Source: Escherichia coli (GTDB lineage: Bacteria > Pseudomonadota > Gammaproteobacteria > Enterobacterales > Enterobacteriaceae). From it: a stretch of 3,201 nucleotides of DNA. Below are positions 2,466 through 2,713 of this stretch, in pieces (position 1 is the first letter of the stretch; each line of letters opens with the position of its first letter). The notes below the pieces were generated by a model. The model was given only the letters and a program-made list of their open reading frames with translations. It did no database searches and had not been told where the DNA came from. Location: the NCBI RefSeq assembly GCF_003334315.1, contig NZ_QOWR01000105.1; one strand, 5' to 3'. The position numbers were made by a program, and so were the translations under genes.

Positions 2466-2713
2466 ACATATCCTTTTTCTGTAGGGTGGAATCTAACGCC
2501 TTTTTATAGCGAGGTTGTCCCGGCTCTTACCAATACACTTTTCTCACGCATTCAATAGCGATTCGATATCGATGGATTTATATCTTTTCTCTATTAATCC
2601 ACGGTAAAAACTGTATTGGCGATATTAATTCCTTTGCATTAACAATATGTCGTTTTTAGCAAACCACTTTATTAAGCAATCTACTAATAACGATCGGCAT
2701 AGGGAATTATGCT
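2466..2713 (-). promoter_or_regulatory. xapA upstream control region (expected XapR-dependent promoter; exact sites not assignable from sequence alone)
   Basis: AT-rich 248-bp region between the xapA start and the divergent gene start. On the minus strand there is a candidate -10 TATAAA (plus 2503-2508) about 37 nt upstream of the ATG, with a weak TTGGTA -35-like hexamer 19 nt further upstream, and a 10-bp perfect palindrome TCGATATCGA at 2563-2572. That xapAB is activated by the LysR-type regulator XapR with xanthosine is established knowledge; the site assignments here are inference. Confidence 0.45.
2503..2508 (-). promoter_or_regulatory. Candidate -10 hexamer (TATAAA) of the xapA promoter
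   Basis: On the minus strand, TATAAA lies about 37 nt upstream of the xapA ATG with a TTGGTA -35-like element at 19-bp spacing. Sequence-based guess only. Confidence 0.25.

Follow-up and report, generated by a model that had tools for sequence, protein, structure and literature searches.

A perfect palindrome of 10 bp lies upstream of xapA in Escherichia coli, in the intergenic region that separates this gene from the divergent yfeN, and the question raised by the locus is whether this short symmetric sequence is itself the operator of XapR, as the first-pass annotation had proposed, or part of a differently built regulatory site. Control of xapAB by XapR has been known since 1995 and serves as a model of a genetic switch.

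The stretch of DNA analyzed here, referred to as the window (3,201 nucleotides), contains an E. coli/Shigella-type xap locus flanked by two copies of IS1, with the following features:

1-207: left IS1 end; it leaves 21 codons of the truncated DUF1427 (xapX) gene (208-270, minus strand)
320-1572, minus strand: xapB, split into two open reading frames (631-1572 and 320-649)
1632-2465, minus strand: xapA (xanthosine phosphorylase), intact
2714-2748, plus strand: start of yfeN (Tsx/OmpK-family channel), cut by IS1
2749-3201: right IS1, which cuts the divergent yfeN after about 12 codons

The two IS1 copies have the same orientation and bracket the xapB-xapA segment. The gene for the xanthosine permease, xapB, is frameshifted by a 4-bp deletion at 676/677 relative to an intact E. 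coli xapB (ATAG, plus strand, in L002), and xapR lies outside the window, as the locus is broken by IS1 at position 207. With two IS1 insertions and a frameshifted permease gene, the xap locus in the window is decaying; it looks like a pseudogenised, Shigella-like version of the locus, and the XapR site in this particular strain may be a relic. The 248-bp xapA-yfeN intergenic region is the same at every base as that of E. coli K-12 MG1655, position x of the window corresponding to MG1655 position x + 2522413.

Relative to xapA, the elements of this intergenic region are arranged as follows:

2497, minus strand: xapA transcription start (MG1655 2524910, reverse), 32 nt upstream of the ATG
2503-2512, minus strand: TCGnTATAAA, with the -10 hexamer TATAAA at 2503-2508 (-11 to -6)
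2529-2541, minus strand: promoter-proximal element AAAnnGTATTGGT (-44 to -32), overlapping the -35 and a putative activation site
2551-2573, minus strand: interrupted dyad, a putative XapR recognition site, composed of ATCGATA (2573-2567), N9 and TATTGAA (2557-2551)
2563-2572: perfect 10-bp palindrome TCGATATCGA (-75 to -66 relative to the xapA start), with a single occurrence in the window

The start at MG1655 2524910 is the only experimentally validated xapAB start in the supplement to the Reg-Seq study, where it is credited to Seeger 1995; xapAB are absent from the main text of that study, and both the start and the remarks on binding sites stand in the supplement (PMC7567609). This published position agrees with the first-pass annotation, which had guessed that transcription begins some 30 nt before the ATG, and the predicted distance of the palindrome from the ATG, about 102 bp, was likewise accurate (center at 2567.5, 102.5 nt upstream). 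A 10-bp palindrome does exist within the interval originally assigned to it, 2559-2576, but its true span is 2563-2572, as both T2562/T2573 and A2561/G2574 are unpaired and the symmetry is exactly 10 bp long. Its position was also rightly called typical for a LysR-type regulator, in that -75 to -66 falls inside a dyad centered at -65.

By itself, the palindrome is statistically unremarkable. The window contains five perfect palindromes of at least 10 bp, against 3.5 +/- 1.9 in dinucleotide shuffles, and at least one such palindrome occurs in 31% of shuffled 248-bp intergenic regions; an expectation of zero applies to the exact 10-mer TCGATATCGA, not to palindromes generally. Because palindromes of this kind are common by chance, the meaning of this one rests on its position and its conservation.

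Conservation was assessed across orthologous promoters. A scan for XapA in species-representative genomes identified 80 loci, 55 of which (L003-L057) carry xapA-xapB-(DUF1427)-xapR with a XapR that is 60-96% identical over the aligned part, and these 55 loci, the window and E. coli 536 supplied 57 orthologous promoters. The heptamer GTATTGG is present 64-100 nt upstream of the ATG in 53 of the 57, all distinct and originating from Escherichia, Citrobacter, Klebsiella, Enterobacter, Buttiauxella, Cedecea and other genera, and when anchored at this heptamer the 53 promoters align without gaps. The invariance of GTATTGG within the alignment is by construction, and its independent support is the 53/57 occurrence at this distance from the gene.

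Numbered from the G of GTATTGG as 0, the shared footprint consists of ATCRATA at -37 to -31, TATYRAT at -21 to -15, AAA at -5 to -3, GTATTGGT at 0 to 7 and TCGnTATAA at 24 to 32, and a MAFFT alignment of 27 representatives returned identical invariant columns. In the gapless information profile of the 53 promoters, the two arms reach about 2 bits per position, with flanks at about 0-0.2 bits and a spacer near 0. The consensus unit across orthologues is ATCRATA-N9-TATYRAT, two 7-bp inverted-repeat arms 9 nt apart, which in the window reads ATCGATA-tcgaatcgc-TATTGAA on the minus strand and is centered at 2562 (-65), 5.5 bp nearer the promoter than the axis of the palindrome. The window's own arms are imperfect (5/7 pairs). 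Across the set, the arms are complementary at five or more of seven pairs in 47/53 promoters, and several promoters have perfect arms of 8-9 bp, for example L053 (ATTGATAC-ATTTTCA-GTATCAAT, with an N7 spacer). The other four orthologues have the variant anchor ATATTGG together with near-perfect dyads, for example ATCGATAT-TAAATTC-ATATCGAT. The site had been described as reading A-N11-T, which does not hold on the correct axis: there the core is T-N11-A, with T at 2568 (-71) and A at 2556 (-59) on the minus strand (anchor positions -32 and -20), and it is invariant in all 53 promoters.

The palindrome itself spans anchor positions -36 to -27 and is composed of two unlike parts. On the left, TCGATA comprises six bases of the distal arm ATCRATA, and on the right, TCGA belongs to the unconserved spacer (T in 13/53 orthologous promoters, C in 18/53, G in 17/53 and A in 31/53). 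About the palindrome's own axis, the 10-bp symmetry is present in 4/53 promoters, all classed as Escherichia-type (the K-12 type, E. coli 536, Pseudocitrobacter and an Escherichia sp.), and just 2 bp of symmetry are present in 39/53. The joint conservation of axis and both halves that marks a self-contained palindromic operator was not found in the orthologues. From the alignment, the palindrome is best described as a lineage-specific by-product, in which a self-complementary ATCGAT in the arm is followed by four permissive spacer bases. Conservation across enterobacterial xapA promoters, which the first-pass annotation had named as a check, thus holds strongly for the dyad but not the palindrome, and the proposed XapR operator retains its region and, as a putative assignment, its protein, but not its symmetry unit.

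Downstream of the dyad, the columns of AAAnnGTATTGGT are conserved, with AAA found in 52-53/53 promoters and the final T in 48/53. Here GTATTGGT repeats the sequence of the proximal arm 22 bp downstream, as a putative activation half-site at -39 to -32. Around the -10, the G and TATAA are invariant in 53/53 promoters. A scan of positions 2400-2800 for consensus promoters and terminators detected nothing; an empty promoter scan is expected here because the promoter is activator-dependent with a poor -35, and the scan is thus uninformative. In vitro, the xapA promoter is used about 10-fold better by the sigma-S holoenzyme than by the sigma-70 holoenzyme (PMC3141248).

The invariant G two bases before the -10 hexamer (TCG at 2510-2512, minus strand) resembles a partial extended -10. 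In addition, a match to the gSELEX consensus of HusR (YnfL), TAGCGAGGTTGTCCCG (PMC12844172), is located at 2508-2523, between the -35 and the -10 of xapA, in a stretch that is unconserved across genera. The HusR/YnfL site was rejected as the identity of the palindrome on account of this location, and sites for FNR, CRP, CytR, PurR and DeoR were rejected by eye, since neither consensus nor spacing fits.

The dyad has the properties of a LysR-type recognition site. Its T-N11-A core is set in an imperfect dyad, its center is near -65 when the start is taken from the literature, a lower-symmetry activation site lies by the -35 (only one half-site being conserved there), and a linked cognate LysR-type gene is present in all 57 orthologous loci. 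The gene upstream of xapA varies across the loci (yfeN, yfeR or others) while the xap cluster is constant, so that the motif follows the cluster and not the neighborhood. In the generic LysR RBS/ABS scheme, a high-symmetry upstream site is combined with a low-symmetry site by the -35, with T-N11-A motifs (PMC11495319), and xapA matches this arrangement to the extent that it looks like a textbook case with no notable difference.

Among solved structures, BenM and CatM rank directly after 7w06 as the nearest relatives of XapR (E ~1e-27), and a QPPLS recognition-helix motif is common to XapR (SQPPLSIHIKELE) and BenM (AQPPLSRQIQNLE). The recognition sites of BenM and CatM sit at -65. At Acinetobacter benA and catB, their Site 1 is an interrupted dyad with a T-N11-A core, like the xapA site, and in both systems a weaker, half-conserved activation site reaches the -35. 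Similarly, little distinguishes the XapR consensus GATAC-N7-GTATC from the BenM box, ATAC-N7-GTAT (PMC11495319). Unlike those of the BenM and CatM sites, the arms of the XapR site continue outward (ATCRATA / TATYRAT). The xapR gene does not lie divergently to its target, and it is reported to be non-autoregulated (PMC7205307). Binding has been proven structurally and biochemically for BenM, whereas for XapR we infer it here, and the literature searched yielded no direct XapR-DNA binding data.

Considered jointly, the evidence makes it likely that the palindrome consists of the distal half-site plus spacer of a XapR dyad centered at -65, that this dyad is the functional unit, and that the promoter is activated through a sliding dimer; sequence comparison points to XapR as the bound protein, and the sliding step is suggested by analogy. 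If XapR behaves as BenM, CatM and further LysR-type activators do, one DNA-binding dimer of the XapR tetramer would occupy the dyad at 2551-2573 whether inducer is present or absent, and the second dimer would touch the weaker AAAnnGTATTGGT site. Binding of xanthosine would then shift the contact of the second dimer, potentially making the poor -35 and the TATAAA -10 usable for RNA polymerase.

The dyad might instead be real but the target of another regulator, such as a global factor or one related to nucleosides, given that XapR is placed at the dyad by deduction and that the LysR-type HusR/YnfL has been reported to bind this very intergenic region (PMC12844172). However, the HusR sequence lies away from the dyad in an unconserved spacer, and the dyad follows the xapR-containing cluster through differing neighborhoods with a geometry and position that are LysR-type and match the box of XapR's structural relatives, all of which renders a different regulator improbable.

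We regard as more doubtful still the proposal that the palindrome itself is an operator, in the form of a compact, dimer-bound site centered at -70.5 that is recognized by XapR in another register or by an Escherichia-specific regulator. Its perfect symmetry would fit such a site, as would the persistence of the 13-mer ATCGATATCGAAT: the intergenic region was found in 4080 of 5426 complete E. coli genomes as two alleles that are about 85% identical, and ATCGATATCGAAT is the same in both alleles and in L003 and L004. This retention is nevertheless weak evidence because just two or three lineages are involved, and five spacer bases would remain unchanged at 85% identity with a probability of about 0.44. 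Moreover, TCGA is expected after the arm with a chance of about 0.016 per lineage (the product of the column frequencies), which is unremarkable over many lineages, and palindromes of this size are frequent in shuffled sequence. The axis is kept in only the four promoters listed above, the right four bases fall in the least conserved stretch, and a spacerless 10-bp site misfits LysR-type binding geometry (PMC11495319). That the palindrome is a chance feature in a non-functional spacer between divergent genes is the least credible reading, since, common as such palindromes are in shuffled intergenic regions, six of its ten bases occupy near-invariant positions of a multi-genus footprint.

The likely XapR dyad at -65 can be set beside the sites already annotated at this promoter. 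Two XapR sites have been suggested, one partly overlapping the -35 and one upstream; removal of the upstream part strongly reduced the xanthosine response, and the architecture of the promoter is described as "not yet fully understood" (PMC7205307). That truncation is given without a stated end-point and so does not discriminate between the -65 dyad and the element at -116. Of the two annotated sites, which are credited to Seeger et al. 1995, the proximal one ("partially overlapping -35") matches the conserved AAAnnGTATTGGT. Further upstream, CCAATACAGTTTT at -122 to -110 pairs as the distal arm with AAAAGTGTATTGG, the proximal arm at the -35, in an inverted repeat of 13 nt. The region mutagenised in Reg-Seq reportedly extended from -115 to +45. 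In the supplement to that study, the annotated XapR sites are called "low evidence", with the remark "one xapR out of range" (PMC7567609), a description that only CCAATACAGTTTT fits. The CCAATACAGTTTT element, and not the -65 dyad, is probably this second database site, so that the dyad would be neither of the two annotated XapR sites.

What emerges is a routine LysR-type recognition site, for a known regulator at a known target, rather than a new kind of element, and the value of the result is a refinement of annotation. A conservation-backed map with a recognition dyad at -65, an activation half-site at -39 to -32 and a -10 at -11 to -6 indicates which bases to mutate, and may help in modelling or engineering the xapA promoter as a xanthosine biosensor.

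On the other side of the intergenic region, a mirror image of this architecture faces yfeN:

2576-2598, plus strand: second dyad, ATTTATA-N9-TATTAAT, an inverted repeat facing yfeN
2606-2619, plus strand (yfeN strand): AAAAActGTATTGG (-122 to -110 of xapA), with GTATTGG at 2613-2619; putative yfeN activation site
2641-2646, plus strand: AACAAT, a hexamer resembling a -10 for yfeN and placed 21 nt beyond GTATTGG, a spacing as at xapA

The two dyads are separated by 2 bp, their centers (2562 and 2587) being 25 bp apart. The yfeN-facing dyad is followed by a 14-nt gap that ends in AAAAAct, in which the offset of AAA from GTATTGG equals that at xapA. The layout of a dyad, N13/14, [GA]TATTGG, N21 and a -10-like hexamer was found in 12/12 yfeN promoters examined, a sample that includes the window, L003, L004, L005, L013, L016, L018, L026, L027, L034 and L054, and in four of these 12 genomes yfeN is not beside xapA. 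The distal CCAATAC element occurs only with a divergently adjacent yfeN (8/8 loci vs 0/49 otherwise). When a composite pattern of the layout was searched on both strands of the 80 loci, it matched 36 xapA and 10 yfeN promoters and nothing else; the pattern was written post hoc, and only the absence of background matches counts as evidence.

This distribution suggests that yfeN belongs to the XapR regulon and that the "XapR site" at -116 serves yfeN rather than xapA. We lean slightly toward viewing the xapA-yfeN region as a pseudo-symmetric double operator (axis at about 2574.5), with back-to-back XapR boxes that would drive xapAB and yfeN, each box being equally far upstream of a AAAnnGTATTGG element and a -10. 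The -116 site would then be where a XapR-dependent yfeN promoter is activated, and within the xanthosine regulon YfeN would provide entry across the outer membrane. No statement of a XapR-dependent yfeN or of a double operator was found in the literature searched; if true, the arrangement would assign a physiological role to YfeN, an uncharacterised outer-membrane channel of the Tsx family.

Related loci were also observed outside the orthologous set. The paralogous cluster in L058-L082, in which XapA is about 70% identical and the LysR-type regulator linked to it shares about 40% identity with XapR, is without the GTATTGG arrangement. A related dyad nevertheless occurs in several of these loci, for example ATCAATAC-GATTTTC-GTATCAAT, roughly 100 nt before the gene. 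A different xap-type locus is present in E. coli SCPM-O-B-8794 and E. albertii. In L005, the gene divergent to yfeN encodes a second XapB-like permease (61% identity), and the dyad and GTATTGG layout appears again on both sides of the intergenic region between the two genes (L005:1729-2039).
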